A stretch of 61,367 bases of DNA from Candidatus Cloacimonadales bacterium (GTDB lineage: Bacteria; Cloacimonadota; Cloacimonadia; Cloacimonadales; TCS61), in contig JAUSOT010000145.1 of NCBI GenBank assembly GCA_030656075.1, positions 1 through 61,367 on the forward strand. The letters are read 5' to 3'. Numbering within the stretch: the first letter of the stretch is position 1; each line of letters begins with the position of its first letter. Positions 28,510 to 52,593 of this stretch are shown one piece after another. The translations under genes and the position numbers were made by a program. Under the pieces are notes generated by a model. The model saw only the letters and a list, made by a program, of their open reading frames with translations. It had not been told where the DNA came from and made no database searches.

Positions 28510-28796
28510 AAGGGGGACAAATGAGTTCTGCATAATAGAGTGTTTTTCACCTCACCTCAATCCTCTCCTGAGAGGAGAGGAAGTTCGCTTTTCTCCTTCT
28601 CCTCGATAGGAGAAGGCTGGGATGAGGTGGATATTGAGAGTGTAAAATACAAGATTAGCTCTTAATCTATTTCAATGATTTAGAAGAAGTTAACTTCTAA
28701 ATATCGGACAGGATGTAGTCAAAATGCCTTTAGTGTTTTTAACTTATTTTATTACAATAAGTTATGAATTGTGAAAAAGGCTTAAAGGGGGACAAA
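28510..28796. mobile_element. 263-bp insert with conserved end motif, flanked by a 12-bp direct repeat
   Basis: AAGGGGGACAAA at 28510-28521 and 28785-28796; insert begins TGAGTTCTGCATAATAGAGTG. Confidence 0.6.
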
Positions 28797-28810
28797 AGTT
28801 AGGAGGTCAC

Positions 28811-30376
28811 ATGTACGTTTTATCGCGTGAAGAAATGTATGCCTTCGATAAATTTACCATCGAGCAGATCGGCATTCCAGCTAAAGAGCTGATGGAAAAA
28901 GCCGGCCGGGGTTGTGCGGAATTTATCAGGAATGAACTGCTTGGAAATCCGGAAGAAATGAAAGAAACCTTAAAAGTGTCAAGCGGGGAGAATAATTTGA
29001 AAGAGACGCTTTCAAGGTTCAAAGTTGCGATTTTTTGCGGAGTTGGAAATAACGGTGGTGATGGCTTCGTGATCGCTCGTTATCTGCGGGAGTGGAATTA
29101 CGAACCGGTCATCTTTCTGTTGGGAATTCCTGACAAAATGAACCCCGAAACCCGGGAAAATTATCAATCCTGCCGGCAGCTGGGAATCGCGATCATTTCT
29201 ATCGATAATGCCGATTTTGAATATGATCTTGCCAAATTCGATTTGATCGTCGATGCGATTTTCGGAGTTGGTTTGCAGGGCATCATCAAAGGTTGGCGAG
29301 CCGATCTGATCGAACGGATAAACAATTCGAACCCGATGGTGGTAGCAGTGGATATTGCCAGCGGTGTGGATGCCGATACCGGACAGGCGGAAGCAGCTAT
29401 TGAAGCAGATTTCACCTTAACAATGGCAAACTATAAATACGGACATTTACTGGGAAAAGGCCGTGAAAAAAGCGGTGAAACTTTGGTGGTTGATATTGGA
29501 ATTCCGGAAAATGTTTACGGGAAATTTCCACCCAAAGGTAAATTGATCACCGCGGAAAACGTGCTTTATCCGAAGCGATCCCGATTTTCCCATAAAGGAG
29601 ATTATGGCAGAGTGGGCATCATTGCCGGTTCTTCCGGTTACAGCGGGTCAGCAATCATGGCATCCCGTTCTGCTTTGCGAGCCGGTGCCGGGCTCATCAC
29701 GCTTTTTCATCCAGCCGGAATGGAACAGATTTTCGAATCACAACTTGTGGAAGTGATGACATATCCACTCCCCTTGGGAAGAGGAGATAAAGAGGGGTTT
29801 GGTAGATTCCTTGAAAAATTAAACACCATGGATGCTCTACTGATCGGTCCGGGAATCGGCACAAAAACTGAAATAAAAGATCTACTGACAGAAATTCTGG
29901 AAATCTGGCAGAAGCCACTTGTTCTGGATGCTGATGCTTTAAATATCATTTCCGCAAATCGAGAATTACTTGAGAAAATCAAGAGTAAACCTGTGATCCT
30001 CACTCCCCATATCGGTGAATTTGCCAGGCTCGCAAATCAAACTATTTCTGAAATTCAGAATGATCCCTTGAAAGCGCTGGATGAATTTATTGAAAAATAT
30101 AAATGTAATATATTATTAAAAAGTTCTACAACAATTTTTGCTGATGGCGACAGTTATCTGTTTAATACAACCGGTAATGATGGTCTTTCCACCGGTGGCA
30201 GCGGCGATGTGCTGTCCGGAATAATCGTTTCCTTCCTGGGACAAAAACTGAAACCGAAGGACGCCGCAATTTCTGCATCTTATTTGATGGGAGAAACTGC
30301 CGAAAAACTGGCAGGAATCCGCAGACCGGCTTCCATCATTCCGTCGGATATAATTGAGAATTTGTTTAGGTATTGA
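28811..30376 (+). CDS. nnr: Bifunctional NAD(P)HX epimerase/dehydratase
   Basis: LMEKAG, GNNGGDG, DAIFGVG, DIASG, SHKGDYG, GPGIG, LDADAL, TPHIGEF, GGSGDVLSG. Confidence 0.95.
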   Translation: MYVLSREEMYAFDKFTIEQIGIPAKELMEKAGRGCAEFIRNELLGNPEEMKETLKVSSGENNLKETLSRFKVAIFCGVGNNGGDGFVIARYLREWNYEPVIFLLGIPDKMNPETRENYQSCRQLGIAIISIDNADFEYDLAKFDLIVDAIFGVGLQGIIKGWRADLIERINNSNPMVVAVDIASGVDADTGQAEAAIEADFTLTMANYKYGHLLGKGREKSGETLVVDIGIPENVYGKFPPKGKLITAENVLYPKRSRFSHKGDYGRVGIIAGSSGYSGSAIMASRSALRAGAGLITLFHPAGMEQIFESQLVEVMTYPLPLGRGDKEGFGRFLEKLNTMDALLIGPGIGTKTEIKDLLTEILEIWQKPLVLDADALNIISANRELLEKIKSKPVILTPHIGEFARLANQTISEIQNDPLKALDEFIEKYKCNILLKSSTTIFADGDSYLFNTTGNDGLSTGGSGDVLSGIIVSFLGQKLKPKDAAISASYLMGETAEKLAGIRRPASIIPSDIIENLFRY

Positions 30377-30379
30377 GAA

Positions 30380-30572
30380 TGTTCGTTCAACCTTCCAGAT
30401 TGAATGAAATTTTAATCAAGACCATCCCTGGTCTTGACAGAGCACACCAGGATGGTGTAAGTTAACTCATGGTTCAACCAAGATGGTTGAACCAACAGAA
30501 AAATGACCATCTCTGGTCTTGGCAGAGCACACCAGGATGGTGTGCGTTAACTCATGGTTCAACCAAGATGGT
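30380..30572 (+). repeat. Left 193-bp REP array flanking the RAYT gene
   Basis: Near-identical to 31111-31303; contains GTTCAACC..GGTTGAAC and ACCATC.CTGG...CCAGGATGGT hairpins in two tandem units. Confidence 0.9.
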
Positions 30573-30606
30573 CGATGATCGGATTAATATTTTGAAGGAG
30601 ACCATT

Positions 30607-31107
30607 ATGGCATCACTCAGAGTATCAAAAGATAATGCTGACAGCATTTTCTTTGTCACTTTCACGATTCGCAGATGGTACTACATTTTTGACCGACATT
30701 CAAGATGGGATATTTTGCTTTCGGCTTTGAAATTTTATCAGGAAAATCAAAATTTGAAAATATATTCATGGGTCTTTATGCTCAATCACATGCATTTGAT
30801 TTTTCAGAGTGAAAATGCAATTAAATTCATTAATAGTTACAAGAGTTATACTGCTCAAAAAATAAGAGAAAATATTCAAGATACGGAACCGAAATTATTG
30901 AAATTATTCAAAACCGAAAAAGATTATCAAATTTGGCAGGGAAAAAATTATCCTGAAATTATCGAATCAGAGAAATTCTTTTTGCAAAAAGCAGAATACA
31001 TCATTACTAATCCGGTCAGGAAAGAATATGTTTATGAGCCGGAAGAATGGAAATTTTCATCTTCAAGTAGAATTCAATTGCTGAAATTAGAAAGTTTATT
31101 TGAATAG
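30607..31107 (+). CDS. REP-associated tyrosine transposase (RAYT / Y1 HUH)
   Basis: AAGGAG RBS then MASLR; FFVTF, WVFMLNHMHLI (HUH), IWQ, YIITNPVR, W.FSS. Confidence 0.9.
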   Translation: MASLRVSKDNADSIFFVTFTIRRWYYIFDRHSRWDILLSALKFYQENQNLKIYSWVFMLNHMHLIFQSENAIKFINSYKSYTAQKIRENIQDTEPKLLKLFKTEKDYQIWQGKNYPEIIESEKFFLQKAEYIITNPVRKEYVYEPEEWKFSSSSRIQLLKLESLFE

Positions 31108-31110
31108 CGG

Positions 31111-31303
31111 TGTTCGTTCAACCTTCCAGGTTGAATGAAATTTTAATCAAGACCATCCCTGGTCTTGACAGGGCACACCAGGATGGTGTACGTTAACTCA
31201 TGGTTCAACCAAGATGGTTGAACCAACAGAAAAATGACCATCTCTGGTCTTGGCAGAGCACACCAGGATGGTGTGCGGTAACTCAAGGTTCAACCAAGAT
31301 GGT
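31111..31303 (+). repeat. Right 193-bp REP array flanking the RAYT gene
   Basis: Direct repeat of 30380-30572 with about 5 substitutions. Confidence 0.9.
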
Positions 31304-31337
31304 TGAACCAACAGAAACATAAAAACGGAGGAAGGAA

Positions 31338-32087
31338 ATGTATAAAAAAATTGGATTTTTATTCTTTGTATTGGTCGTTTTGATATTAGGTTGCAGCAAA
31401 TCAAAACCGGATGCAAAAGTTGATGAAATGCTCACAACTTCGATGAACACCGTCGATCAGATTGTTCAGGATGAGCTGGACAGGCTGCACACGATTGCCG
31501 AATTGAAAGATGTGCAGGAAGGAAACTGGGATTTCATCAAAGCAGCTCTCACCGAAAATGAAACAGACCGTAACGCTGCTCTCTACTGGTATTCTCTTCC
31601 CAGCGGCAGCTATTTCACATCCGAAAAAGACAAAGTGGAAGCTAATTTAAGCAGCCGCGGTTATTTTCCTGATTTATTGGCAGGCAAAGATGTGGTCGGC
31701 TATCCGATCGTGGGCAAAACCAGTGGCAGAAAATCTTTCGTAATCGCTGTTCCGGTGATAGTGGAGGAAGAAGTTTATGGCATTCTGGGCACATCGATCT
31801 ATCTGGATGAAATGTGGGATTTCCTGAACGACAAGCTGATCATTCCTGAAAAATACGATTTCTATGCCGTGAATACCATGGGCATCACTATGTTCGATCT
31901 GGAAACTAAAGACCATCTGCTTGCTAACACGTTAGAACAGACTTCTACCACCCTGGTGGAAGCGATCAAAGTTATCATCAGCACAGAGAACGGCACGGTG
32001 ACTTATAAGTGGAATGATAAAAAGAAAACAGCGGTTTACCGCACATCACCCGTCACCAACTGGCGTTATGTTATCTCCTATTATTGA
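31338..32087 (+). CDS. Lipoprotein with a dCache-type domain
   Basis: Lipobox ILGC; NLSSRGYF, PIVGKTSG, IAVPV, GILG, C-terminal TNWRYV. Confidence 0.8.
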   Translation: MYKKIGFLFFVLVVLILGCSKSKPDAKVDEMLTTSMNTVDQIVQDELDRLHTIAELKDVQEGNWDFIKAALTENETDRNAALYWYSLPSGSYFTSEKDKVEANLSSRGYFPDLLAGKDVVGYPIVGKTSGRKSFVIAVPVIVEEEVYGILGTSIYLDEMWDFLNDKLIIPEKYDFYAVNTMGITMFDLETKDHLLANTLEQTSTTLVEAIKVIISTENGTVTYKWNDKKKTAVYRTSPVTNWRYVISYY

Positions 32088-32220
32088 TTTGCTTTACAGG
32101 AGAAATTGAAGCAGAAAATATTAAAATATTGACACGACAGGAAGTTGAAATTTTTTTTAAAAGGATTTGAATAGATTTCATTATCAGAAAGAGTTGAGAT
32201 TATATAGATAGGTTGGGGAG

Positions 32221-32907
32221 ATGAATCAGAAACAGAAAAGTTTAATTCAAAATGTTATCATAGTTGTTTTTATAATGATCATCATTGTAAATGTGAATAA
32301 GTGCGTCCACAGATCGACGATCTGGATTTCCGACCTGCCGGAAAAAGAAGTTTTCTTCAATTCAACCGGAGATAAACTGAAGGTCAGCAATCCTGATGAA
32401 GGGATTTCCAAACTGAAACAGAAACTGGAACCGAACGAATATATTCTCTATTACGATGAAAATCCTGCCGAACGCTGGTATGCAACCATGCGGCTCAAAA
32501 AAGGCGAAAATGAGGTTGATCTGAAATTCCGAAAACACACACTTCCGCACATCAAAAAAGAGCTGATCCTGGAATACAAAACCGATGATATAGAATTGGG
32601 GAATCGCAGTTGGCGCTATTCGATCTACAATTCCAAAAACAGCGAAATTTTTTATGATATGGAAATCAATTTCTCTCTACGTGGAAAATTGGTCGGAGAG
32701 GATTATGCTTACACCGCCAAATGGTGGCTTGATAAAAGCGGCAGCAAAAAAAGCAAAGAACAGATTAATCTTACCTCTCACGATAATTTGACTTTTACTA
32801 TTTATGAAGATGGTTTGCACAGAATCGATGTGAACCTGGTCTCGAACGGCAACACTGCCAGCTTTGAAATGAACGCTGTTTTTACCAAATACGCAAATAA
32901 AAAATAA
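32221..32907 (+). CDS. Hypothetical protein with N-terminal membrane anchor
   Basis: 228-aa ORF, GGGGAG RBS, hydrophobic N-terminus. Confidence 0.7.
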   Translation: MNQKQKSLIQNVIIVVFIMIIIVNVNKCVHRSTIWISDLPEKEVFFNSTGDKLKVSNPDEGISKLKQKLEPNEYILYYDENPAERWYATMRLKKGENEVDLKFRKHTLPHIKKELILEYKTDDIELGNRSWRYSIYNSKNSEIFYDMEINFSLRGKLVGEDYAYTAKWWLDKSGSKKSKEQINLTSHDNLTFTIYEDGLHRIDVNLVSNGNTASFEMNAVFTKYANKK

Positions 32908-33009
32908 AAAATATAGATTCTGAAAATATAAACTGAATACGAAGTTAGCTATAACTTCGGAATGCTGGTATTTTGTTTGAAGCACAATTTGGAAAAATGG
33001 AGCTTTATT

Positions 33010-35418
33010 ATGAAAAAGTTAATAGTTATTCTCTTTCTTTTGTTTTCCTTTTTTCTTCCGGCTCAAAATGTGGTCATCAACGAAGTACTCTACGATCCGG
33101 TTGGCTCGGATGGGGGCTATGAATGGATTGAATTGTATAATAATTCCGATGAAGGCGTGAATTTAGCATTATGGAGATTAGTGAAGGCAGGGAGTGAATT
33201 CGAAACAGTCTTTTTTTTCGATCTCTTTGCTTTTAATTATATTTCTCCGCATTCCTATTTCTTAATTGGAGAAGAATTCGTTCCGAATTGTGATCTCACC
33301 GAAACTCTTGCTTTTCAAAATGGCGGCTCCGAAACTGATGGAATTCGGCTTATTTCTCCCGACACGCTATACACCGATACAGTTTTGTATGATTCTCCCA
33401 ATACTAATAATCTGCCGGACGATCTGTCCAATCCCGGTATTTATTTTGCCGTCGATGTGGTGGGAGGGAATACTCTGGCACGCAAACACGATGGGGAAGA
33501 TACAGATAATTCTGAAACAGATTTTTTTGAATGTGAAATTCCTACTCCCGGAAGTGCCAATATTTACCCGGTTGATCTGGCAATTTACGAGCTGGAAATA
33601 GCCTGGAATAATGATGAATACTGGCTTCAAACAGAGATTGTTAATTTATCCACAGAAAATGTGGATAACTATGAAGCAACGCTCGAAATTACCATCAATA
33701 GTGCAACTTACGGCATCTTCGAACTTCCTGCCATTCCAGCTTCCAGTTCAGTGCCGTTTGCTTGTAACCTGGGAACGTTCACTGAAAATTATGTGATAGT
33801 GGAATGTTTGCTTTATTATTTGTATGATAATCAGTTAGATAATAATTTTGTCATCACCTCCATCCTGATCGATTCTTCACCGATTGTCTTGAATGAAATA
33901 TTTTTCAAGCCGCAAAGCACCAATCAGGAATGGCTGGAATTGTTCAATCGCAGTTCGTGTGCATATCTTGTGGATAACTGGAGAATAATCGACGCATCCG
34001 GCGGAGAAATAAGCTTTTCCGGCTTTCTGGGAGCAGATGATTTTCTGGTCGTTTGCCAGGATACGATTTTGATGATGCAGATCTATCCCAATATCGATCC
34101 GAATAAGATAATTCAAAGTGACAGTTGGACTTCCCTGAATAATACCACTGAAACATTAGTTTTGCAAGATGGATTTGCGGCGGTTTTCGATTCCGTTTTC
34201 TATGATGGAAATAACTGCCCTGCCGATTATTCATTGGAACGGGTAAATCCCTTTGAAGATGAAAATATCGAATGGCTGGTTTGCTTAGATTCACTGGGAA
34301 CTCCCTCTTTTCACAACAGTGTGCTTCCCATCGCAAAAGATCTGGAACTGGAATTTGTGGAAATCCGGGAAGAAAATGGAGAAATCTATCATAAAATTAA
34401 GATCACAAATATCGGCTTGGAAAATATTATTTCTGTTGATTTTACCTGTTTTCAATGGCAGATGGATGAAAATCCGGCAGTAGAAATTTATGCAGATGAA
34501 ATTACGATAGATGATGATCTGGAGATCGTTTTCAGTACAAATCTGCCGGATGTTGGTTATTATGAATTTGAGTATTTTGTGGATTCCGAGGAAGATTTGA
34601 ATGAAGCCAATAATTCAGACTGTTCATTTTGGGATTGTAATGGTCTTCCGTTCGTGATCAACGAAATCATGTATGCTCCGCAGAATGAAATGCCGGAATG
34701 GCTGGAAATCAAATTCAATCTGGGAATATCCGACATGACAGAATTTTTTCTGGTCGTGGATGAAGATACTTTGCAGATAGATTATCCTGCGTCGGAAACC
34801 GAATTCATGCTCGTCACCAATTCCTGGAGTGATATCGATACTTTGCAGTCGGTTTATAGCCTGGAAAACATTCCGATCATTTGCGGATTGACGTCACTTT
34901 CCAATAATGGCGAACAGCTTGCTCTTTTGGATGAATGCGGTAATTTGATCGAGAGTTTCTGCTTTTCTCCGGATTGGAATGATGCGATGCCCGGTATTTC
35001 CATCGAACGCGTAAATTCCTGTCTTACTGCCACAGAAAACAATTGGGGGCCTTCAGTTTCGGAATGTACTCCCGGAGTAGAAAATAGCATCTTCGTACAA
35101 GTTTTGCCGCCAAAAATGAAACTTTCTGTCGATCCCAATCCCTTCTCACCTTATCGCGGAGAACATACAATTTTCAGCTTCAAACTACCGGAAGTGATCA
35201 GCCGAATGACTTTGCGGATCTTCGATCTGAAAGGCAGAATGCTGCGCAAACTGGTGAACCAGGAACTGCAGGCATCCACTGGAAATATTGTTTGGGACGG
35301 CAAAGGCGACAACGGCAAGAATCTGCCGATCGGTGTTTACGTGGTGCTGATGGAAGCAGCTTCCTATGAATCGGAAAAAGTTTATAAAAAGAAGATCACG
35401 GTTGTAATAGGGAAATGA
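33010..35418 (+). CDS. Secreted multi-lamin-tail-domain protein with FlgD-Ig-like C-terminus
   Basis: Start MKKLIV (33010); three V.NE..Y/F.P....EW.E repeats with TPG/TPS ends; PNPFSP...IFDLKGR...WDGK. Confidence 0.85.
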   Translation: MKKLIVILFLLFSFFLPAQNVVINEVLYDPVGSDGGYEWIELYNNSDEGVNLALWRLVKAGSEFETVFFFDLFAFNYISPHSYFLIGEEFVPNCDLTETLAFQNGGSETDGIRLISPDTLYTDTVLYDSPNTNNLPDDLSNPGIYFAVDVVGGNTLARKHDGEDTDNSETDFFECEIPTPGSANIYPVDLAIYELEIAWNNDEYWLQTEIVNLSTENVDNYEATLEITINSATYGIFELPAIPASSSVPFACNLGTFTENYVIVECLLYYLYDNQLDNNFVITSILIDSSPIVLNEIFFKPQSTNQEWLELFNRSSCAYLVDNWRIIDASGGEISFSGFLGADDFLVVCQDTILMMQIYPNIDPNKIIQSDSWTSLNNTTETLVLQDGFAAVFDSVFYDGNNCPADYSLERVNPFEDENIEWLVCLDSLGTPSFHNSVLPIAKDLELEFVEIREENGEIYHKIKITNIGLENIISVDFTCFQWQMDENPAVEIYADEITIDDDLEIVFSTNLPDVGYYEFEYFVDSEEDLNEANNSDCSFWDCNGLPFVINEIMYAPQNEMPEWLEIKFNLGISDMTEFFLVVDEDTLQIDYPASETEFMLVTNSWSDIDTLQSVYSLENIPIICGLTSLSNNGEQLALLDECGNLIESFCFSPDWNDAMPGISIERVNSCLTATENNWGPSVSECTPGVENSIFVQVLPPKMKLSVDPNPFSPYRGEHTIFSFKLPEVISRMTLRIFDLKGRMLRKLVNQELQASTGNIVWDGKGDNGKNLPIGVYVVLMEAASYESEKVYKKKITVVIGK

Positions 35419-35443
35419 ATTGTCATTGCAAGTATTCTTTTAT

Positions 35444-35636
35444 CTTGTTCCCAAATTTCATTTGGGAACACAATTGAAAGCGAAACTCCAGTTTCGCCAG
35501 AGGAGATTCTCATTCCCAAACAGGAGTTTAGGAACGAGAATATAATACTTGTTTCATTTGGGAACACAATTGAAAGCTTAACTTTAATTTTGCCAGAGGA
35601 GATTCTCCTTCCCAAACAGGAGTTTAGGAACGAGAA
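35444..35636. repeat. Tandem REPIN-like elements (GTTCCCAAA...TTTGGGAAC family)
   Basis: Two tandem units; the same element occurs twice in reverse orientation at 45372-45595. Confidence 0.85.
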
Positions 35637-39615: not shown

Positions 39616-42291
39616 TTATATTTCCGCATATTCCGTTCTGGCGATAACTTCGTCCTGGATCTGTTTGCCAAGTTCTACCCAATATTGAGTAAATCCGGCC
39701 ACGCGCACCATCAAACCGCGGTATTTGTCAGGATTTTGCTGGGCGTCTTTCAGCATGCGGGAATCAACGATATTGAATTGAACATGAAAACCGCCTTTTC
39801 GAAGATATGCTCTGATCATCTCCAAAAACTTACGTGCTCCTTCACGTCCTTTGATAACAGAAGGATGGATTTTCATATTCAGTTGTGAATTTTGCGATGA
39901 AGCATGATTGTAGCAAGTTGCAGAAGAGAACAAGGCATACGGTCCGTTTTGATCGGTTCCCGGATAGGCAGAAACAGAACCGTCGGCAAAAGTTGTACCG
40001 CCAAGTCTGCCATCGGGAGTGGCCAAAGTAACAGCGCCCATGGGACCATGAGTCGAAACCGATATCTGGCAGGAATACAAAGGTTCATCATAAAGCGATC
40101 TGTAATTTTCACACATTCCGCTAAACCACTCCTGCCATTCTTTAAAGATGTTATCTACATATTTGTTATCATTGCCGAATTTAGGAGCATCCAGGCATTG
40201 TTTGTGTGTCTTTAACCAGGTTTGGAAATTCTGAGTTTGTTTCTGTTCGGTTAAACTGTAGGAACCGGTTTCCAAGGCAGAAATATAGCCGAAGTTTTCT
40301 TCCAGAGCTTGCTTCAAGGTAGCCAGCGAGAAATTTTTCTCTTCAAAAACGTTCTTTTTGAGGGAAGCAAGAGAATTGACGAGGTTAACTCCTCCGCAAA
40401 TTTCCACGTTAAAGGTACGATTATAACGGCTGCCTTTATTACTGATATCTTTTCCAGTTTCCAGGCAGTCTGGTTTCAGCATGCTATTGATGATCGAAGG
40501 AGATATTTTTCCCCAGACATCGTGTTGGATGTTATTCGTTAAGGTTAACACTTCTACTGTCAGACTGAAATATTCCTGGAAAGCTTTCCAGACTTCCTCA
40601 TAAGATTCCAGATTATAACCATGAGCAGGATAAACTCTTCTTCCGGTTCGTTTATCAAGCCCATCGAACAAAACAGCTTCCAAAACTTTGGGCAAGGAAA
40701 TGAAGTGAACTCCCACGCTGGTAGCAGGGGCAGAACCGCCGGGAATGTAATGAGTAACACCATCCAGATCGAGCGGCATCCAACTACCGGCAGATGTTTC
40801 CAGGCAACCGCCAATCGACCAGGCTCGAACTTCTTCCAGCGTCATTCCTTCATTTTTAAAATTGTTAAGCAAAAATTCCATTGCCACTCGATTATTAATC
40901 CAGGCCGGATAGCCGGTGCCGATTTTTGTACATTCGATCCCTTTTAATAAAAATTCTTCGGGCAGTTTTTCATCGTATAATAAACTTAAAGTCGGTTGCG
41001 GAGTGTCGCAGGTCATGGCGGATTCAAGAATCAACATTTCCAGTTCATTTGCTGCACTTTCCCCATCTTTGGTCAGTCCGCCGAGGCAGAGATTATTGAA
41101 AGTATTTCCGCTTAAAACGCCGCCGACAACGCCCATGGAAGCAAAACAATCTAATTCGGTAAATTTCATGCGCATGCATTCAAGCAGTTCCAAAGATCGT
41201 TCGCGGGAAAGTATTCCTTTATCCATATCTCGTTTCCAGAAAGGATAAAGTACTTGGCCCAGCCTTCCGGGAGATAATCCGGAAATGGCATCTTCATTCA
41301 GCACTGCTACGTGGAAAATCCAAACCAGCTGCAAAGCATCATGGAAGGTTCGGGGAGGATTGATCGCCAGCCATTCCAGGCGTTCGGCAATTTCCAGGTA
41401 TTCGGATTTATCGTTTTCATCTTCTTCCAGGGATGCCATCAGTTTAGCTTCTTCAGCATGATTTTTGATCCAGCTCTGCAATCCTTCCAGCATGGTATAA
41501 ACAGATTTATAGAAATAAATTCTGTCCATTCCGGGATAACCGGCTGCTTGTTTCAGTTTTTCGTCACAGATATTTTTGATGCCTTCAATGCCGTATTGCA
41601 GGGGATAATAATAATTCATCACTTCCCGCCCCTGGGGCAGGGTGTAGCCGGAATCGAACATGCAGATCACGGCACGCATGATTTCTTCTTTTTCGTGGTA
41701 GCCGGGAACTAACTGCTCATATTTATGACCGACATCATCGACCGATTTATTATGCCATTTTTTGGCTACATCCAAAAGTATGGGCATTTCTTCTTTGCGA
41801 AGTCCAAACTTGCCGGCAATGGATAAAACATTTCCAATGCTTTTTGTAACGTTGCCTCCACCCTGTCCCATCGTAGTAACTTCATCAGCACTGACTTTAC
41901 CAGCTTCCAGAGCATCTTTGTACAATCGATCTTCGTGTGCCATGAAAAAAGCTTCCGAAAGCCAGGGCATTGGATAAGAACCGCGCAGATAATGAGATTT
42001 TCCCAGCACCAGCAATTCACCCGGAAAAATGGCCGGTGTAAGATGCTCGAAACCAGCTTTCAGTGCTTCCGCTCTTCGCACAATCGGGATTTCACCTTCT
42101 AATTCTTCCCATTTTCTTGTGTACCAGTAGGGAAATTCTACTGATGCAGATGATTTGGTTTCAAAATATAATTGTCGGGATTTTTCTACTCGTGCGGAAG
42201 GAGATTTATGGATCTCGCGTGTTTGGATTTCGCCCTCTGGTTTTGAACCGTAATAATTGTATGTATCACATTCTATTTTTTTCGATTCCAT
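39616..42291 (-). CDS. hpdB: 4-hydroxyphenylacetate decarboxylase glycyl-radical large subunit
   Basis: 891 aa; GGCLE Cys loop, RVAGFTQYW Gly loop, PQGRE, AISG, GNTFNN, GVHF, FNVE. Confidence 0.88.
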   Translation of the reverse strand: MESKKIECDTYNYYGSKPEGEIQTREIHKSPSARVEKSRQLYFETKSSASVEFPYWYTRKWEELEGEIPIVRRAEALKAGFEHLTPAIFPGELLVLGKSHYLRGSYPMPWLSEAFFMAHEDRLYKDALEAGKVSADEVTTMGQGGGNVTKSIGNVLSIAGKFGLRKEEMPILLDVAKKWHNKSVDDVGHKYEQLVPGYHEKEEIMRAVICMFDSGYTLPQGREVMNYYYPLQYGIEGIKNICDEKLKQAAGYPGMDRIYFYKSVYTMLEGLQSWIKNHAEEAKLMASLEEDENDKSEYLEIAERLEWLAINPPRTFHDALQLVWIFHVAVLNEDAISGLSPGRLGQVLYPFWKRDMDKGILSRERSLELLECMRMKFTELDCFASMGVVGGVLSGNTFNNLCLGGLTKDGESAANELEMLILESAMTCDTPQPTLSLLYDEKLPEEFLLKGIECTKIGTGYPAWINNRVAMEFLLNNFKNEGMTLEEVRAWSIGGCLETSAGSWMPLDLDGVTHYIPGGSAPATSVGVHFISLPKVLEAVLFDGLDKRTGRRVYPAHGYNLESYEEVWKAFQEYFSLTVEVLTLTNNIQHDVWGKISPSIINSMLKPDCLETGKDISNKGSRYNRTFNVEICGGVNLVNSLASLKKNVFEEKNFSLATLKQALEENFGYISALETGSYSLTEQKQTQNFQTWLKTHKQCLDAPKFGNDNKYVDNIFKEWQEWFSGMCENYRSLYDEPLYSCQISVSTHGPMGAVTLATPDGRLGGTTFADGSVSAYPGTDQNGPYALFSSATCYNHASSQNSQLNMKIHPSVIKGREGARKFLEMIRAYLRKGGFHVQFNIVDSRMLKDAQQNPDKYRGLMVRVAGFTQYWVELGKQIQDEVIARTEYAEI

Positions 42292-42310: not shown

Positions 42311-42503
42311 GATATTCTTAAACTTAATCATATTTATTATTTTCGCCTTTTCCGCCTCCGAAAACTTTCGGAGTCACCTTTTTCAGGGGAGAAGGAATAT
42401 GCTCTTCGAAGGTTACGAATCGTCATCCCCTCCTCCGAAGAGGGTTGGGTTGGGCAGTTTTCAAAATCACTCTATTATGCAGAACTCATGATATTCTTAA
42501 ACT
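42311..42503. mobile_element. 165-bp insert with conserved end motif, flanked by a 14-bp direct repeat
   Basis: GATATTCTTAAACT at 42311-42324 and 42490-42503; insert ends CACTCTATTATGCAGAACTCAT. Confidence 0.65.
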
Positions 42504-43488
42504 ATATTGACATGGAATTCAACGTATTCATCAATTCCTTTCTTATATCTTTCACATCCTCAAAAATGATGCGCGTCACGCAGGAAATGAGCGGAATCGA
42601 CAAGTTGAATTTTGCCAGTTTATTGACCGTTTTTGCCATGGAAACTCCTTCGACTACCATCCCGACTTCTTGCAAAGCAGCTTCGGTGGAATATCCCTGA
42701 GCCAGCAGTTTACCGAATTGTCTGTTCCGGCTGTTTTCGGAAATGCAGGTCGTGATCAAGTCTCCAATGCCGGCGATGCTGTAGGCTGTTTTGTGATACA
42801 CGCCCAGAAATTTCATGATCGTCACAAATTCATCCACGCCGTAAGTCATGATGATCCCGAAAATATTTGTTTTGTAACCCAGTCCATCGGCAATTCCCAC
42901 TGCAATGGCGATCAAACCCTTCAATGATGAGGCAAGTTCGACACCTTTGATGTCCCGGCTGAATTCAAATTTGAGAAGATCATTTTCCAGTCTTTGTTGC
43001 AGCTGAAACAAAAGTCCAATATCGCGTGCTGCCAGGATAGCTTTGGCAGGAAGTCCTTCGGCAATTTCGCGGGCAATGGTCGGACCGGCCAGATTGGCAA
43101 ATTTCACTTTCGGCATTTTGTCCATCACGGTTTCCCAAACTGTTTTCAGGGTAGTGTGTTCAACTCCTTTCGAGGCGTTTACGATAATGAATTCTTCTAT
43201 TTGATGAGCGATGAATTCATCGGTCAACTCTTCAATGAAACGGGAAGGAATGGCAGTGATGACGATGTCATTTTTTTTGATCTGCCGGGAAAATTTCTTT
43301 TCGACGATGATATTATCGGGTAATTTTATATTCGGCAGAAACTGGGATTCACGTGTCTTATTGATCTCATTTGCTTCCTGCTCGTCAATCGTCCATAAAT
43401 ATACTTTATTTTTTTTAGAAAATACCATTGCCAGCGTGGTTCCCCAATTTCCGGAACCAATTACGATAATTTTACCAAGCTCTTCTAT
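42502..43488 (-). CDS. gpsA: NAD(P)H-dependent glycerol-3-phosphate dehydrogenase
   Basis: ASKGVE, GPTIARE, GVEL..SLK, GIGDLITTC.SENSRN, VEG. The Rossmann motif IGSGNWGT lies upstream of the track's ATG, so the start is probably ATA 43488. Confidence 0.9.
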   Translation of the reverse strand: MEELGKIIVIGSGNWGTTLAMVFSKKNKVYLWTIDEQEANEINKTRESQFLPNIKLPDNIIVEKKFSRQIKKNDIVITAIPSRFIEELTDEFIAHQIEEFIIVNASKGVEHTTLKTVWETVMDKMPKVKFANLAGPTIAREIAEGLPAKAILAARDIGLLFQLQQRLENDLLKFEFSRDIKGVELASSLKGLIAIAVGIADGLGYKTNIFGIIMTYGVDEFVTIMKFLGVYHKTAYSIAGIGDLITTCISENSRNRQFGKLLAQGYSTEAALQEVGMVVEGVSMAKTVNKLAKFNLSIPLISCVTRIIFEDVKDIRKELMNTLNSMSI

Positions 43489-43985: not shown

Positions 43986-44062
<77 letters not shown>

Positions 44063-45595: not shown

Positions 45596-45614
45596 TTAAT
45601 ACCTCGCAAAGACA

Positions 45615-46448: not shown

Positions 46449-46487
46449 ATCTACAAACTAATTTCAACCGATTTGATGTCTAATATT

Positions 46488-47303
46488 TTATTTGGAAACT
46501 AAGAAAACTTTCATCCAGGCATTTAACGATCTGGGTCTTTCCGTAAATTCAGGCTGCTCCATACCGCCTGGCATTTGTCCCATTTCGTCGTCGGGCCTTT
46601 CGCCGATTTCACCCCCGGAGATTCTATCTTCGGGTATTTTTGGTTTGGAATGTATTTTCGGCTGTTCGATTTTTGGAGTTTCAAAACCAATCAAAAATTC
46701 AGCATTTGGTTTCACATTGAGGGAAAAAGAATTTCCCGAATCAGCGTAAAGTGGTATTTTCAATTCATAAGCAAATAATCCCTTATGAGCACCCACAGCC
46801 ATTTCCAATCCGGTCAATTCACTAAGTTTCATTTTGACGACATCATTCCTGACAGGTCCGATGATCTCCAATTCTTTCGGCAGGGTCAGCAGCATTTTCT
46901 CGATATTGGGAAGTTCCATTTTTTTATCGTTTGGCATTTGCTGTTCGGATTTATCGAGTTTCTCAAACATCTGCGGATTTTGCATTCCCAGCGGAAAATG
47001 AATTCCGACTTCTTTTTTCTTTTTACCTTCCGTATTTATCCAAAGTGTGCAGCCCCGCGTGATAAGCTGCCTGGTGAGTTCCTGTGTGGTGGGATAAAAA
47101 CAGAGATAAAGAAAATTCTCATCGTTCATCACACCCAAAACCACGTTGTAATCTTTCAAATAATATTGAGCGTCGATCCAATCTTTGTCATTACCATCGA
47201 TGGTGATTTCCCGATCTCTCCAAAGACTTTCCAGTTGAATCATATTGCAACCCTGCAACAGGATAACGGCGATCATGACAATTCCGAAATAATACTTTTT
47301 CAT
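46488..47303 (-). CDS. Hypothetical lipoprotein
   Basis: Lipobox LLQGC; ITIDG..KDW, ND.NFLYL, YELKIPL. Confidence 0.75.
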   Translation of the reverse strand: MKKYYFGIVMIAVILLQGCNMIQLESLWRDREITIDGNDKDWIDAQYYLKDYNVVLGVMNDENFLYLCFYPTTQELTRQLITRGCTLWINTEGKKKKEVGIHFPLGMQNPQMFEKLDKSEQQMPNDKKMELPNIEKMLLTLPKELEIIGPVRNDVVKMKLSELTGLEMAVGAHKGLFAYELKIPLYADSGNSFSLNVKPNAEFLIGFETPKIEQPKIHSKPKIPEDRISGGEIGERPDDEMGQMPGGMEQPEFTERPRSLNAWMKVFLVSK

Positions 47304-47360
47304 CTTTTTTTACCATTATTTGGAAATTAAAAATAGCAATTTCCGAAAATTTCTCCTTAT

Positions 47361-47571
47361 ATATTCATTTCAAATGAGTTCTGCATAAAACAACTCCGTC
47401 TTTGCGAAGAATCTTGCAGAGGAATTCTGCTGAAGCAATCTATTTTGTTAAATAATTAATAATTAAAGAGATTGCTTCGTATGCGGCAGCAAGAAGCCAA
47501 CTCGCAAAGACAACAATTGCCGACTTTTTCTACTAAAAAACTCTATTATGGAGAATTCATATTCATTTCAA
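47361..47571. mobile_element. 185-bp MITE-like element with imperfect terminal inverted repeats and a 13-bp direct repeat
   Basis: ATATTCATTTCAA at 47361-47373 and 47559-47571; ends GAGTTCTGCATAA / TTATGGAGAATTC; internal inverted pair GTCTTTGCGA..GAAGCAATCT / AGATTGCTTC..TCGCAAAGAC. Confidence 0.7.
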
Positions 47572-48111
47572 TCACTTATTTCGGGAAGGTGGAAATTTCT
47601 CCACAAATTTCTGAGCGGTTTCATTGATAATTTCTGCGATGTTTTCCACATCTATCCTAATTCCGGAAGCCCAGCCCTGCCAGATCAATTCGTCAGTTTC
47701 TCCGTCATAAATTTTCAGGGTGATCATTCCTTCCATATACCTGTCTTTGGATACATTTGTTAAGCCAAAACCGAATCCATGATGACGCCAACCATGAGAA
47801 TAATGCGAAACATAAACATCCTCTTCCATGTGGGAAGCCTGCTCGTATGCCAAAATGAAATCAGCGTTCTGATCGGTTTTTTCATAACCTTTGTTTTCCA
47901 GTTCCAGGTTCAAAGCGTTTTTCAATCGTTTATCCATCAAAGGATTATCGAAGATAGAGTTGCTTTTATTATCAACGTCTTTTGCCCAGCGGAAAGTGTG
48001 ATATTTACTGAAATCGGCTTCTACATCGTAGTCGTATGCCACATAAATGGTAGAACATCCCAAAAACGAAAGAACGATTAGAACAAGCGCTGCAAGTTTT
48101 ATGGCTTTCAT
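47572..48111 (-). CDS. DUF4136-like lipoprotein
   Basis: GGAGG RBS, lipobox FLGC, DYD..ADFSKY.TF.W, YMEGMITLKIYD...LIWQG.A...FPP. Confidence 0.8.
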   Translation of the reverse strand: MKAIKLAALVLIVLSFLGCSTIYVAYDYDVEADFSKYHTFRWAKDVDNKSNSIFDNPLMDKRLKNALNLELENKGYEKTDQNADFILAYEQASHMEEDVYVSHYSHGWRHHGFGFGLTNVSKDRYMEGMITLKIYDGETDELIWQGWASGIRIDVENIAEIINETAQKFVEKFPPSRNK

Positions 48112-48333
48112 GTTCACCTCCTCCGAATGAATAATTTAATTCCCTTCCTGTTACAAGTAAAATCTTTAATTTCTCATAATTTCTTCCTGAACATTCAGAC
48201 AGAAGCGATAGAGCAATCCTGCGAAATATTTTTATTGGAAATCTCAAATTGATCAAATAAGATGAATTATTTATTTGACGGTGGGCTAAGCTAATGAAAT
48301 TTGAAAGGATGAAATGAGTAGAAGGAAATAATT

Positions 48334-48786
48334 ATGAGCTACATTCTAAATTTGCGTGAAAAAATGGGAGATGAACCGTTGATTATGGTGGGATCGACCG
48401 TGATGATAAAGGATAAAAAAAGAAAGATTCTGCTGCAAAAACGCAGTGATACCGGCTTGTGGAGCACGATCGGCGGTGCGATGGAAGTGGGTGAAAGCTT
48501 GGAAGAAACAGCAATTCGAGAAGTGCAGGAAGAGACTGGTTTGAAAATTGAATCGATGGAAATGAAAGGTATGCTTTCCGGGAAAGAGATGTTTCATAAA
48601 TATCCCAACGGAGATGTGATCAACCTTGTCACAGCGGTTTTCGAAGTAATTGAATGGTAGGGAATTCCCAGAGTTAATGATAATGAAAGCCTGGATTTTC
48701 AGTTTTTTGATTTGAAGAATGAATTACCTGAGATGCCGCTACTGGTGAAAGTAATCTTGGAAAAATCAGGATATCTTAATAGTTAA
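48334..48786 (+). pseudogene. NUDIX hydrolase interrupted by an in-frame TAG at 48658-48660
   Basis: Nudix box GGAMEVGESLEETAIREVQEETGL; the frame continues past TAG as GIPRVNDNESLDFQFFDLKNELP... to TAA 48786. Confidence 0.75.
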
Positions 48787-49008
48787 CAAAATGTTGTCTT
48801 TCTGAGGAATTTTCTCAATTGAGCTCACGAAGAATCTCTATTTTAACGAATGATGTCAGCCTCGCGAAAGCGGGGATCGGAGCTGTTTTTGGAGATTCCC
48901 GATTACTCGGGAATGACTGCTGATTATTTTATTTAGAATGTCTTACAGCTTCAAGTCCAGTTTCGCAATGCTCCTCTGAACTCGGATCTATTTTTGTGCT
49001 TTTTGTAG

Positions 49009-50364
49009 CTATTTCCCGATACAGAAATTCTCGAAGATCTGATTCAGAATATCGTCGGTAGTCACTTTGCCGATGATCTCTTCCAAAGCGGTACTGGCTT
49101 CTTTCAGATCAAAAGCGGTAAATTCATAACCCAGATCATTCTGCAGAGATTCGATTGCTTTTTGAGTTGATTCCACAGCTTTTTTCACGGCGGCGATTTG
49201 ACGGGTATTGGTCAAAATCCCCGATTGCAGTTCTTCCCGGGAAATAAGAATATCTTCGATCAGCTTTTCTTTGAGTTCTTGTAAACCTGATGTATCGGTT
49301 ACTGAACAAATCAGGTAGCCTTTTGTTCTGAAATCATCCAATTTACCTTTCGGGAATAAATCTGACTTGTTCAGAACTTTGATGATCCTGCTTTCTGAAG
49401 TAAATTCCAGAAGTTTTGCATATTCGTTTTCATTCTCTTTTCCATCGATGATAAAAAGGATTCTGTGAGAATCCCGAATAATCTCATAGGAACGTGCAAT
49501 ACCGATTTTTTCTATATCGTCGGATGTTTCGCGAATGCCGGCAGTATCAAAAAAACGGATGAGATATCCCTGCAGGTTGATCGCTTCTTCCAGGTAGTCC
49601 CGCGTGGTGCCGGGATGCGGCGTAACGATTGCCCGTTCTGTTTGCAGGAAAGCATTGAAGATGCTGGATTTGCCAACATTCGGCGCTCCCACCAAACTCA
49701 CTTTCAAACCTTCTTTCAAAATCAATCCTTCCGTTCCGGTTTCCACCAGTTTTTCCAATTCCTGCCGAAGTTCGGTTAATTGTCCGCCAAGTTGTTCTTT
49801 GTCCAGTTGCTCCAATCCCTGTTCTGTAAAATCGATTTCCAATTCCAGTAAAGTGCGGTATTCCGTCGTTTTTTGCAGCAGTTTTTCGATTCTTTTACGC
49901 AAACTTCCTTCAAATTGCTGCATCGCTGCCAGATGAGAAATTTTCGTTTTAGCAGTTAAAATATCGCCAACTGCTTCAGCTTGAGTCAGTCCGATTTTAT
50001 CATTCAAAAAAGCTCTTTGCGTGAATTCCCCGGGATCAGCCAGGCGGGTATGGCGCAGCAGCATTTCCAATATCTGGTTCGTGACGAAAGTGCTGCCGTG
50101 GCAGGAAATCTCCACCACATCTTCACCCGTGTAGCTGTGCGGCGCTAAAAAAACAGTTACCAGCACTTCATCGATCAGTTGATCATTATCGCAAATCCTG
50201 CCGAAAGCAGCTTGATGCGATTTGATTTTGGAAAGTTTTTTTGAAGAATGGAAAATCTCTTCCACAACCGGAATGGAATGTTCACCGCTGATGCGCAAAA
50301 CAGAAATGCCACCAATCCCGATCGGGGTGGAAATGGCAGAAATCGTATCGCCTTTATATTCCAT
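49009..50364 (-). CDS. mnmE: tRNA modification GTPase MnmE
   Basis: DTISAISTP, SYTGEDVVEISCHG, GAPNVGKSS, GTTRD, DTAG, NKSD, FCIGK. Confidence 0.97.
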   Translation of the reverse strand: MEYKGDTISAISTPIGIGGISVLRISGEHSIPVVEEIFHSSKKLSKIKSHQAAFGRICDNDQLIDEVLVTVFLAPHSYTGEDVVEISCHGSTFVTNQILEMLLRHTRLADPGEFTQRAFLNDKIGLTQAEAVGDILTAKTKISHLAAMQQFEGSLRKRIEKLLQKTTEYRTLLELEIDFTEQGLEQLDKEQLGGQLTELRQELEKLVETGTEGLILKEGLKVSLVGAPNVGKSSIFNAFLQTERAIVTPHPGTTRDYLEEAINLQGYLIRFFDTAGIRETSDDIEKIGIARSYEIIRDSHRILFIIDGKENENEYAKLLEFTSESRIIKVLNKSDLFPKGKLDDFRTKGYLICSVTDTSGLQELKEKLIEDILISREELQSGILTNTRQIAAVKKAVESTQKAIESLQNDLGYEFTAFDLKEASTALEEIIGKVTTDDILNQIFENFCIGK

Positions 50365-50369
50365 GGAAA

Positions 50370-52229
50370 TTATTTGAGGAGTTTTTTGATCTTTTCGTAA
50401 ATCTGATCTGTGGTTACTTCGATGATCTCTTTCAGTTCGTCGGTAGTTCCGTAGGTGACGAATTGGTCGGGAATTCCAAAAGAATGAACCCGAATATTAG
50501 AATTCACAAACCTGCTTTTGATCGACTCACCAAACCCGCCTTTCAAGCTATTTTCTTCGATAGTGAAGATCGTTGTCACACTCTTTTCCAGTTCTTTCAA
50601 AAGTTTTTCATCAGCTGGTTTCATCCAGCGTGCATTGATCAAGTATGGTTTAATTTTCGGAAAATCTTTTTTCATTTTTTCAAAGATCGCTTCTGCATCC
50701 TCAAATGATTTTCCAATGCCGATCAGAACTATATCATTCCCTTTGATGCGCACATCATATTTGCCGAGTTCGATCGGTTTGTGTTCAATTTTACAAGATT
50801 TGGCAGAACCGCGGGGATAACGGATGGCAATCGGTCCTTCATTATATTCGGCGGCAAATTCCAGCATCATTTGTAATTCTTCCGCATCGGAAGGCGCCAA
50901 GATGGCAAGATTCGGCACGATGCTGAGATAGGAAAGGTCGAATACTCCATGATGCGTAGCTCCGTCTTCTCCCACCAGTCCGGCTCGATCCAGACAAAAA
51001 ACAACCGGTAATTTCTGCAAAGCGATGTCATGGATAATCTGATCGAAAGCGCGCTGCAGGAAAGTGGAATAAATTGCTACAAACGGTTTCATTCCCTGAA
51101 TGGCTAATCCGCCGGCAAATGTGACGGCATGCTGTTCGGCAATTCCCACATCAAAAAAACGTTTCGGAAATTTTTCGGCAAAATCAACCAAGCCTGTGCC
51201 ATCTGCCATGGCAGCAGTAATAGCGATGATCTTATCATTTTTTTCTGCCAGATCGCAGAGTTTCTCACCGAAGACTTGTGAATAGGATTTGCCGTTTTTG
51301 CCGCGGCATTTACCTGATTCGATTTCGTAGGGTCCCAAACCGTGAAAACGCGGTGCATCATCTTCGGCGGGTTCATAACCTTTGCCTTTGGTGGTGACGA
51401 TATGAATTAAGATAGGGCCGTTCATATTGCGTACGACCTTCTTGAAAATCCGCACCATGCGGGGAATATTATGGCCGTCGATCGGTCCGACATATTTAAA
51501 ACCGAGATCTTCAAAAATAATATTCGGCGCCAGAGAGCTGATCAGATTTTCTTCAATCTTCCTGGCGCTCAGTATCGTGCGGCGGCGAATCCGGTGCGGC
51601 AAGTGCTGCACAAAATCCCAAACTACATTTTTGATGGTATTGTAGGAACGGCTGACCAGGATATTGGTGAGATAAGCCTGTAGGGCGCCCACGCTTTTAG
51701 AAATCGACATGTTGTTATCATTTAAAATAACGATCATATCTCTCTGCAGATGCCCTGCGTGATTTAGTGCTTCGAATGACATTCCGCCCGTGAGGGCGCC
51801 GTCACCGATCACGGCAATATTTTGGCCTTTTTCATTTTTCATTTCCCGGGCAATGGTGATTCCCAGAGTTGCCGAGATCGAGGTGCTGGCATGTCCAACG
51901 CCGAAGGCATCGTAAATGCTTTCAAAAGTGTTATTGAATCCGCTGATACCATTCAATTGGCGCAGTGTATCGAATCTCTCATTCCGTTCGGTTAAAATTT
52001 TGTAGGCATAAGATTGATGCCCCACATCCCAGACTATCTTATCAATTCTTGGATCGAAAACTTTTAAAAGCGCAATCGTCAGGTCGGTGGCACCCAGGCT
52101 GGGAGCTACATGTCCGCCATTTTTTGCCGTTACTTCGATTATTCTTTTCCGCACATCCCGGGCGAGTTCCAGAAGTTCTGAAAGCGACAGATTCTGCACA
52201 TCATCCGGTGTTTTTATTTTTTCAAGCAT
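50370..52229 (-). CDS. dxs: 1-deoxy-D-xylulose-5-phosphate synthase
   Basis: GGH..PSLG, WDVGHQSY, GHASTSIS, GDGALTGG, DVGIAEQH, DRAGLVGEDGATH, IRYPRG. Confidence 0.97.
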   Translation of the reverse strand: MLEKIKTPDDVQNLSLSELLELARDVRKRIIEVTAKNGGHVAPSLGATDLTIALLKVFDPRIDKIVWDVGHQSYAYKILTERNERFDTLRQLNGISGFNNTFESIYDAFGVGHASTSISATLGITIAREMKNEKGQNIAVIGDGALTGGMSFEALNHAGHLQRDMIVILNDNNMSISKSVGALQAYLTNILVSRSYNTIKNVVWDFVQHLPHRIRRRTILSARKIEENLISSLAPNIIFEDLGFKYVGPIDGHNIPRMVRIFKKVVRNMNGPILIHIVTTKGKGYEPAEDDAPRFHGLGPYEIESGKCRGKNGKSYSQVFGEKLCDLAEKNDKIIAITAAMADGTGLVDFAEKFPKRFFDVGIAEQHAVTFAGGLAIQGMKPFVAIYSTFLQRAFDQIIHDIALQKLPVVFCLDRAGLVGEDGATHHGVFDLSYLSIVPNLAILAPSDAEELQMMLEFAAEYNEGPIAIRYPRGSAKSCKIEHKPIELGKYDVRIKGNDIVLIGIGKSFEDAEAIFEKMKKDFPKIKPYLINARWMKPADEKLLKELEKSVTTIFTIEENSLKGGFGESIKSRFVNSNIRVHSFGIPDQFVTYGTTDELKEIIEVTTDQIYEKIKKLLK

Positions 52230-52246
52230 AAGCTTCCTTTATTTTT

Positions 52247-52593
52247 TATCGACAAGCACTTTCTATTCTCTGCCTCATCCCCAATGTAATATTCAGCAAG
52301 CTGAATTTCACGGGGTAAACCGACTTCGTCCCGAAAGCGTTCGGGACCACCTTCTCCTATCGTGGAGAAGGACAAAAAATTATAACTTTATTAGGCATTT
52401 CTCCCTCTCCCTTGGAGAGGGCAGGGGTGAGGCAAAAACACTCTATTATGCAGAACCCTTTTATATCGACAAGCACTTTCTATTCTCTGCCTCATCCGTC
52501 CGGCAGCTGCCGGACACCTTCTTCGATGGAGAAGGAAATCTATCCAAATCAAAACCACTTCTCCTTCTCCATTGGAGAGGATTGGGGTGAGGC
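52247..52593. repeat. REP cluster with a 34-bp direct repeat and the conserved end motif
   Basis: TATCGACAAGCACTTTCTATTCTCTGCCTCATCC at 52247-52280 and 52464-52497; CACTCTATTATGCAGAAC at 52439-52456. Confidence 0.8.

Follow-up and report, generated by a model that had tools for sequence, protein, structure and literature searches.

Miniature elements beside ribosome-binding sites in Cloacimonadota share their ends with a 1.55-kb insertion sequence

Bacterial miniature inverted-repeat transposable elements (MITEs) such as Correia and MITEAba12 make short target duplications of fixed length. Repetitive extragenic palindromic (REP) elements are not known to carry comparable terminal inverted repeats or to duplicate their targets. 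Among full-length insertion sequences (ISs), IS30 and the IS3-family member IS911 integrate beside sequences resembling their own ends, and members of the IS1182 family measure about 1.3-1.95 kb. An excerpt of PMC7335449 quotes ISfinder as giving IS1182 duplications of 2-60 bp; passages of PMC5678879 describe IS1272 insertions at inverted repeats without a duplication, together with its authors' model that the target is duplicated or lost depending on where the strands join; and a portion of PMC3049150 reports pneumococcal repeats as over-represented between convergent genes. Here we analyze a 61,367-nt contig of a Candidatus Cloacimonadales bacterium (JAUSOT010000145.1, assembly GCA_030656075.1), hereafter the window, which is contig C265 of the 282 contigs of this genome (G000) and holds four short inserts that share an end motif and are bracketed by direct repeats. 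These inserts belong to a MITE family with an identifiable parent IS. At a probability of roughly 0.8, we read them as internally deleted and rearranged copies of a ~1.55-kb IS widespread in Cloacimonadota, a reading that includes placement directed by the Shine-Dalgarno (SD) sequence.

The motif GAGTTCTGCATAATAGAG, with up to three mismatches, occurs in the window at 28523-28540 (+), 42470-42487 (-), 47541-47558 (-) and 52441-52458 (-), and as a weaker, inverted copy at 47376-47393 (+), giving five matches against 0.04 expected from shuffles. Allowing up to two mismatches, 47 copies were found in G000 and none of the reversed-pattern control. Direct reading recovered the motif and the four flanking-repeat pairs that the initial annotation had placed in the window, and the genome-wide excess of such repeats that it expected was also found: a direct repeat of at least 12 bp adjoins 20 of 62 G000 matches (up to three mismatches), compared with 46 of 2000 random positions. 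We read the junctions of 24 complete copies in G000 and 17 more in other species; their flanking duplications, together with ends common to a transposase-encoding IS, bear out the proposal of a non-autonomous mobile family. Many motif copies in G000 lie 130-230 bp from contig ends, indicating that the repeat breaks the assembly and that the true copy number is higher.

The parent was recognized in a genome of the same genus (L059), where an element of 1,551 bp lies next after a class D MITE; it has both ends, the left reading AAGGATTCTGCAAAAT..ATAGAGTG and the right being of the type found in MITE classes A, B and C (classes are defined below). This element has a 13-bp flanking duplication and carries, on the opposite strand, a DDE transposase split into two open reading frames (ORFs). 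A scan of metagenome contigs yielded 18 loci, seven of them with both ends. Six metagenome copies measure 1,539-1,548 bp, with the left end ATG(A/G)(G/C)TTCTGCATAAT(T/A)(A/G)GCAGAAAATAG(A/T)GT and an A/B/C-type right end, and one copy of 1,569 bp encodes a transposase ~61% identical and ends in ATTATGCAGAAGGCTT, a good inverted repeat like that of class D. The IS copies that share the MITE ends are L059, L076-L084 and L089. The first ~18-25 nt of the MITEs align to the IS left end, save for a stretch of ~11 nt unique to the IS, and the last ~100 nt of the A/B/C MITEs align to the IS right end. G000 itself holds a decayed parent copy on C186 that retains both ends but is disrupted by several stops and frame changes. 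The left end of the parent reads A(T/A)G(A/G)GTTCTGCATAAT..ATAGAGTG, which is the motif of the initial annotation, and two IS types may be distinguished: type 1, with a degenerate inverted right end (...AAGTTATGAAtTgTGAAAAAGGCTT), would be the parent of classes A, B and C, and type 2, with a good inverted right end (...ATTATGCAGAAGGCTT), the parent of class D.

The IS transposase is a single ORF of 400 aa, and its intact relatives of 394-401 aa carry PF05598 (DUF772) and PF01609 (DDE_Tnp_1). Its best NCBIfam match is IS1182 (NF033551, E 1.2e-23). The transposase may be a distant relative of the IS1182 family, a weak assignment drawn from the profile match. The initial annotation had matched the inserts to no named element; that statement gives way to a ~1.55-kb parent IS with a DUF772 and DDE_Tnp_1 transposase closest to IS1182. 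It had rightly stated that the window contains no cognate transposase, and the IS enzyme would be expected to act in trans on the MITE ends. Three other G000 genes were rejected as the cognate transposase, each lacking a flanking terminal repeat: one of the IS1634 family on C245 (546 aa), one resembling IS1380 on C214 (482 aa) and a partial, IS5-like one on C54. A search of G000 for rve-type integrases gave no match. The IS1634-family gene is an intact transposase in its own right (C245:1568-3208; L058 1291-2931, minus; NF033559, E 2.7e-114), with candidate 17-nt inverted repeats ~1.9 kb apart that are unrelated to the motif.

Complete short elements measure 165-350 bp, and no long ORF fits in them. 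Class D (~183-194 bp, including 47374-47558) has the ends ATGA(A/G)TTCTGCATAAT ... ATTATGCAGAA(G/C)TCAT, with inverted repeats of 16 bp, and G000 contains 13 such inverted pairs 180-242 bp apart. Classes A, B and C (250-350 bp, including 28522-28784) have in common the right end ...TTAACTTATTTTATTACAATAAGTTATGAA(T/A)TGTGAAAAAGGCTT, the tip of which is a degenerate inverted left end matching at 11-15 of 18-20 positions by eye. Terminal inverted repeats are therefore present in the family, except in 42325-42489 and 52281-52463. Only two inverted terminal-repeat pairs in G000 lie more than 600 bp apart (a C106 pair at 1,043 bp and a C68 pair at 2,685 bp), and the C68 end at 4814 is part of a 345-bp MITE. 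A 3.3-kb end pair in another genome (G045:C192) was rejected as one element, being two separate MITEs.

Two observations concern the left end. The sequence ATGAGTTCTGCATAATAG (e.g., window 28521-28542) holds stops in two frames (TGA; TAA-TAG), and at no fewer than five sites the frame of the upstream gene now terminates within the terminal repeat (examples are C182, C191, C99 and C189 of G000 and L059 1051-1053), so that insertion there replaced the last codons or the stop. On C279 of G000 (13383-13660), a pair of elements sits back to back, with 11 nt between the two left ends; the 15-bp duplication of one includes the terminal-repeat tip of the other, indicating insertion into or beside a resident end.

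The right end holds inward promoter-like sites, namely TTCACA-18-TAAAAT in the window (28746-28775, minus, 10/12 matches) and, in the IS right ends L076-L084, TTGACT-17-TAAATG overlapping a conserved AGGAGGTAGTCAAGA. As a sequence match, this site is presumably the transposase promoter, and in the MITEs it would fire antisense, toward the upstream gene. A consensus scan of the right end for outward promoters found none, only these inward sites, and promoter supply thus offers no obvious reason for the orientation described below.

Exact flanking repeats are 8-17 bp long in most copies, with a median of ~12-13 bp and outliers of 19, 22, 28 and 34 bp, in keeping with the long, variable duplications first described; several further copies have imperfect duplications by eye. 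The duplicated sequence differs from copy to copy across the 24 G000 MITEs and the 17 of other species. Integration would use a wide and variable stagger that leaves AT-rich duplications, mostly of 10-16 bp and occasionally of 22-34 bp, and duplications of such lengths fit the reports on IS1182-like elements. On C224, non-identical units of the truncated type that we term A-short are arrayed and separated by one 28-nt sequence, which could reflect repeated use of one target or recombination.

The features of the window are as follows (coordinates, strand, description, basis or context).
28510-28521, plus: left target duplication AAGGGGGACAAA, read directly; the 3' half of the hairpin CCCCCTTgcgAAGGGGG
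28522-28784, plus: class C MITE of 263 bp, from its junctions and alignment to IS copies
28785-28796, plus: right target duplication AAGGGGGACAAA, read directly
42311-42324, minus: gene-proximal copy of the 14-bp duplication GATATTCTTAAACT, read directly
42325-42489, minus: insert of 165 bp, from its junctions
42490-42503, minus: distal copy of the 14-bp duplication GATATTCTTAAACT, overlapping the TAG stop of the upstream gene 42502-43428
47361-47373, minus: gene-proximal copy of the 13-bp duplication ATATTCATTTCAA, read directly
47374-47558, minus: class D MITE of 185 bp, bounded on both sides by inverted ends, with ATAGAG at 47541-47558 giving its orientation
47559-47571, minus: distal copy of the 13-bp duplication ATATTCATTTCAA, abutting the end of gene 47572-48117
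52247-52280, minus: gene-proximal copy of a 34-bp repeat; the dxs start (52229) follows after 17 nt
52281-52463, minus: A-short, a truncated class A element of 183 bp, from its junctions
52464-52497, minus: distal copy of the 34-bp repeat, with more REP-like units beyond it at 52498-52600
28376-28509, plus: older repeat debris upstream of the 28522 MITE, with a degenerate right-end-like stretch (ctatggcaaaccctcttta)

The class C MITE begins with the left terminal repeat (A)TGAGTTCTGCATAATAGAGTGTTTTT, continues into REP-like hairpins and closes with ~100 bp homologous to the parent IS right end, inward promoter-like site included, as aligned to IS copies L076, L077, L081 and L083 and to the decayed C186 copy; its boundary is uncertain by 1-2 nt. 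It is 98% identical to a copy on C229. Past its right duplication come an SD sequence AGGAGG at 4 nt and, at 14 nt, the ATG of the gene for an NAD(P)H-hydrate repair enzyme (28811-30376). In the 165-bp insert, the left terminal repeat (42468-42489) is perfect, the hairpin interior is nearly unique and no right repeat is recognizable; 19 nt separate the gene-proximal duplication of this insert from the start (42291) of the glycyl-radical enzyme gene (39616-42291) downstream of it. The class D MITE resembles many copies of ~183-194 bp in G000 and related genomes, its near-perfect inverted repeats are like those of the second IS lineage, and its gene-proximal duplication is followed 3 nt on by an SD-like AAGGAG, with a likely start codon (47303) 57 nt away. 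The A-short element carries the left terminal repeat AAGGGTTCTGCATAATAGAGTG, REP-like hairpins and the terminus ...CATTGGGGATGAGGC, and lacks the IS-derived right end; in gene sense, the first ~10 nt (GGATGAGGCA) of the 34-bp repeat at 52247-52280 are a REP-like tail rather than unique target. The debris upstream of the class C MITE belongs to another repeat family with 26 BLAST matches in G000. Other short intergenic repeat families, such as ggctttagccgtagaggggttttgcaag... (26 BLAST matches in G000), are shared across genera and unassociated with the terminal repeat, and stretches related to the 28376-28509 repeats also occur in G001, G002, G004, G012 and G016.

Comparison with relatives indicates that the short elements were inserted. 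The spacer orthologous to the 28522 site is 26 bp in G003 and ~0 in G019, and holds other repeats in G001. In G001, G002 and G003, all of the same genus, ~60 nt of insert-free sequence separate a conserved TTGACA box from the SD sequence of dxs; in G000 the leader is ~480 nt, filled by REP units and the MITE, which places the insert in the dxs 5' leader. The TTGACA box, ~60 nt upstream of the dxs start in the three relatives (cf. window 52600-52720), suggests that this lineage has sigma-70-type promoters and that the dxs 5' leader would be ~35-40 nt long. At the 42311 and 47361 sites, relatives lack synteny or DNA similarity. As to the empty sites for which the initial annotation had suggested looking, insert-free spacers were seen in G003 and G019 (28522 site) and in G001-G003 (dxs), but at 70-81% identity no exact single-copy target was seen.

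The family is widely distributed. Of the 62 genomes from the same family, 49 contain the 13-nt terminal repeat, and one query found the transposase in 4, so that MITEs far outnumber assembled parents. Among records with an exact 18-mer, 33 of 45 are Cloacimonadota bins by title and 6 more are Tenebribacter, which we take to belong to the same phylum. The exact 18-mer also occurs in bins of other phyla, namely L004 (a Latescibacterota single-amplified genome) and L007 and L037 (an Armatimonadota bin), the latter two holding complete MITEs with duplications; these copies reflect either mis-binning or transfer.

The elements lie at a constrained distance from SD-like sequences. An SD-like core and a start codon (counted if it opens an ORF of at least 50 aa) directly follow the gene-proximal duplication in 15 of the 23 complete G000 MITEs, compared with 1.3% of random intergenic positions (p~2e-23), and 18 of the 23 have an SD-like core within 12 nt (7.3% at random). 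A combined set of 76 right ends, drawn from G000, from other species and from full-length ISs, contains one duplicate locus and two class D ends read in reverse; the first SD-like core begins 14-18 nt past the element in 49 of them, as opposed to 3.3% at random. By eye, the SD core lies 12-18 nt past the right end in 8 of 11 full-length ISs. Past the right end, the position profile is A-rich at 9-16 and G/A at 17-21, and ~3-5 nt separate the duplication edge from the SD sequence, again by eye. The right end faces a gene start in ~24 of the 28 assessable copies, so the left end is turned toward the upstream gene, and transcription of the transposase gene would run away from the downstream one. 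The genes downstream of the inserts are unrelated in function. New copies also occur at a distance of 11-14 nt from resident left ends (C154, C227, G001:C10 and C279), and this resident end starts AAGG/ATGAG, resembling AAGGAG.

These data suggest how placement might arise. The right end would be set 14-18 nt upstream of the SD core, with the gene-proximal edge of the duplication 3-5 nt from it, and the transposase would choose an A-rich stretch followed by AAGGAG-like purines, a sequence similar to the tip, AAGG(G/A), of the terminal repeat on which it acts. Such targeting would make elements accumulate in 5' leaders. We infer that the SD-proximal placement reflects target choice rather than selection, while treating selection as a serious rival. 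The more specific proposal, that an IS1182-like transposase homes to ribosome-binding sites by A-rich DNA plus AAGGAG, cutting with a stagger of 10-16 nt that stops 3-5 nt short of the SD sequence and integrating in one orientation, is tentative and, in our judgment, falls somewhat short of even odds. If it is true, the IS and its MITEs systematically colonize 5' leaders across the whole phylum. A literature search, with paper supplements outside its reach, returned no report of SD-directed insertion of an IS or MITE, none for any DDE IS, and no report of a Cloacimonadota MITE. On palindrome targeting by IS1182, nothing further than PMC5678879 came up.

Several observations weigh against reading the inserts as SD-directed derivatives of this IS. 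Full-length IS copies with both flanks lack a duplication in 6 of 6 cases, unlike the MITEs, which could reflect chimeric assembly, recombination between ISs or a duplication-free mode. The 42325 and 52281 inserts have no recognizable right end, the 34-bp repeat is partly a REP tail, and the C224 array could stem from recombination. The sole transposase gene copy found in G000 is the decayed one on C186, and the IS1182 profile scores 78-84 bits, far below the family cut-off of 270. With regard to placement, 13 of the 76 right ends lack an SD-like core in the 40 nt that follow, four G000 copies adjoin gene ends (C55, C225, C237 and C279), and target choice is drawn from surviving copies, so selection could shape the pattern. 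The closest relatives are 70-81% identical and no site with a single intact target copy was seen; what they provide are empty orthologous sites rather than exact pre-insertion alleles. Among the contigs of the only sequencing run covering the region, which may itself be the source, an empty-site variant was not found, and one contig spans the 42311-42503 insert; no RNA data set covering the region was listed. Transposition is deduced from sequence, with no event observed.

The most durable alternative keeps the identity of the elements as IS1182-like MITEs and explains their position by selection, such that elements insert widely in AT-rich DNA and persist only in the short, tolerant interval from transcription start to SD sequence, in a harmless orientation. 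Tight spacers agree with it, as do the distal duplications 42490-42503 and 47559-47571, which overlap or abut an upstream stop, and the five upstream frames that end within the terminal repeat; a wide duplication would keep both stop codon and SD sequence, the exceptions lie beside gene ends (C55, C225, C237 and C279), and surviving copies alone were sampled. However, the spacing to the SD core is narrow (49/76 at 14-18 nt) even in spacers of 200-700 bp (C209, C216 and C238), and hardly any copies occupy the zones that should tolerate insertion, whether ahead of promoters or where genes converge. The convergent zone is enriched for MITEs in other bacteria, according to a portion of PMC3049150. 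Near-identical, hence young, copies are already SD-adjacent, and an identical target was hit at least twice on C39 and on G001:C10, and perhaps on C224. The inward promoter-like site points away from the downstream gene, contrary to selection for promoter supply. We consider an origin by selection possible, on the unlikely side.

The initial annotation had proposed a mobile system that moves variable palindromic cargo by one conserved end, its inserts being mostly one-ended; such a system would be new, and rolling-circle-like or otherwise non-canonical. The 42325-42489 and 52281-52463 inserts and the C224 units have the features that would be expected from it, with an intact left end, an unrecognizable right end and flanking repeats of 14-34 bp, and interiors do vary between copies. 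Most copies are nevertheless two-ended: G000 contains 13 inverted class D pairs, and the last ~100 bp of 28522 are a right end common to the IS. The motif forms the end of an IS that encodes a DDE transposase, and the possibility, raised with the initial proposal, that deletion derivatives of an IS explain the inserts applies to 28522 and 47374-47558 and, in part, to 42325 and 52281, which have no right end. Nor does the cargo behave as such. The interiors of the four window copies do not align with one another, as first noted; genome-wide this does not extend to 28522, 47558 and 52458, which belong to multi-copy subfamilies with 59, 31 and 69 BLAST matches in G000, compared with 2 for 42487. 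These interiors are largely REP-like, and 47/59 (28522) and 41/69 (52458) of the matches lie more than 450 bp from any terminal repeat, which makes the hairpins repeats in their own right and not a payload; we take the variable interiors to be repeats that nested or recombined. Linkage of the motif to an HUH or rolling-circle gene was not seen, linkage having been examined, among 14 Y1_Tnp matches, for the window copy, which has different repeats. Rolling-circle elements are not known to produce flanking duplications. A one-ended system therefore appears improbable.

Mobilization of REP or REPIN repeats by REP-associated tyrosine transposases (RAYTs, Y1), with the motif as part of the REP unit, appears more improbable still. 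G000 has 14 Y1_Tnp (RAYT-like) matches, and the hairpin modules in the interiors of classes A, B and C are GC-rich, REP-like and repeated independently across the genome. Yet each motif-bearing unit is bracketed by a duplication of its own and its inverted ends are identical to the ends of a DDE IS, and the hairpin modules mostly occur without the motif. The window encodes one Y1_Tnp (IS200/RAYT-like) ORF of 212 aa (30469-31107, plus), flanked on both sides by a different repeat, in near-identical copies of ~90 nt that contain a hairpin (tgttcgttcaaccttccag...ggttcaacc; ~30381-30475 and 31112-31300, in tandem downstream). This gene and its repeats look like a REP/RAYT-type system apart from the MITEs, and no RAYT gene was seen consistently flanked by the motif. 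REP/RAYT activity accounts at most for the interiors and not for the mobile unit. Least probable of all is an ancestral cis-regulatory leader, whether a structured 5' untranslated RNA or a promoter cassette: constant position and orientation upstream of start codons and the hairpin content would agree with it, but orthologous sites in relatives lack the insert, a different duplicated sequence brackets each copy, tRNA alone reached the gathering score of the Rfam covariance models in the window, the downstream genes are functionally unrelated, and the ends equal IS ends.

Reading the inserts as MITEs of a ~1.55-kb IS turns an apparently unknown one-ended system into an identifiable IS/MITE family and supplies a parent element for Cloacimonadota, a phylum represented almost solely by metagenome bins, whose assemblies are broken at these repeats. 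The poorly understood variable duplications of IS1182-like transposases also gain data from MITEs. A true target preference would represent a compact natural system that sets DNA at a fixed distance upstream of translation starts, with bearing on how transposases read their targets, on the evolution of 5' leaders and on start-site annotation of these genomes.

In comparison with known systems, the family is like IS30 and IS911 in that its preferred target AAAGGAGG is similar to the terminal-repeat tip AAGG(G/A) and copies also adjoin resident left ends; it differs in that the resemblance spans only ~5 nt, and the mechanism would be a similar one at most by analogy of sequence. Like the IS1182 family, including IS1272 of staphylococci, it has one DDE transposase with a DUF772-type N-terminus, a length of ~1.55 kb, duplications that are variable or absent, and a preference for intergenic sites near genes. 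IS1272, as described in passages of PMC5678879, targets inverted repeats downstream of genes and replaces them, whereas the target here is A-rich, lies just upstream of the SD sequence, is usually non-palindromic and is duplicated. Like Correia, RUP/BOX of pneumococcus and MITEAba12, the short elements (165-350 bp) are non-coding, multi-copy and intergenic, share terminal inverted repeats with a parent IS, have flanking duplications and are likely co-transcribed with their neighbors. A MITE family with its parent IS is thus a known category, and this one is unlike the described bacterial MITEs in its duplications, which are 8-17 bp and up to 34 bp rather than short and fixed, and in the concentration of its copies, in one orientation, 14-18 nt upstream of SD sequences.

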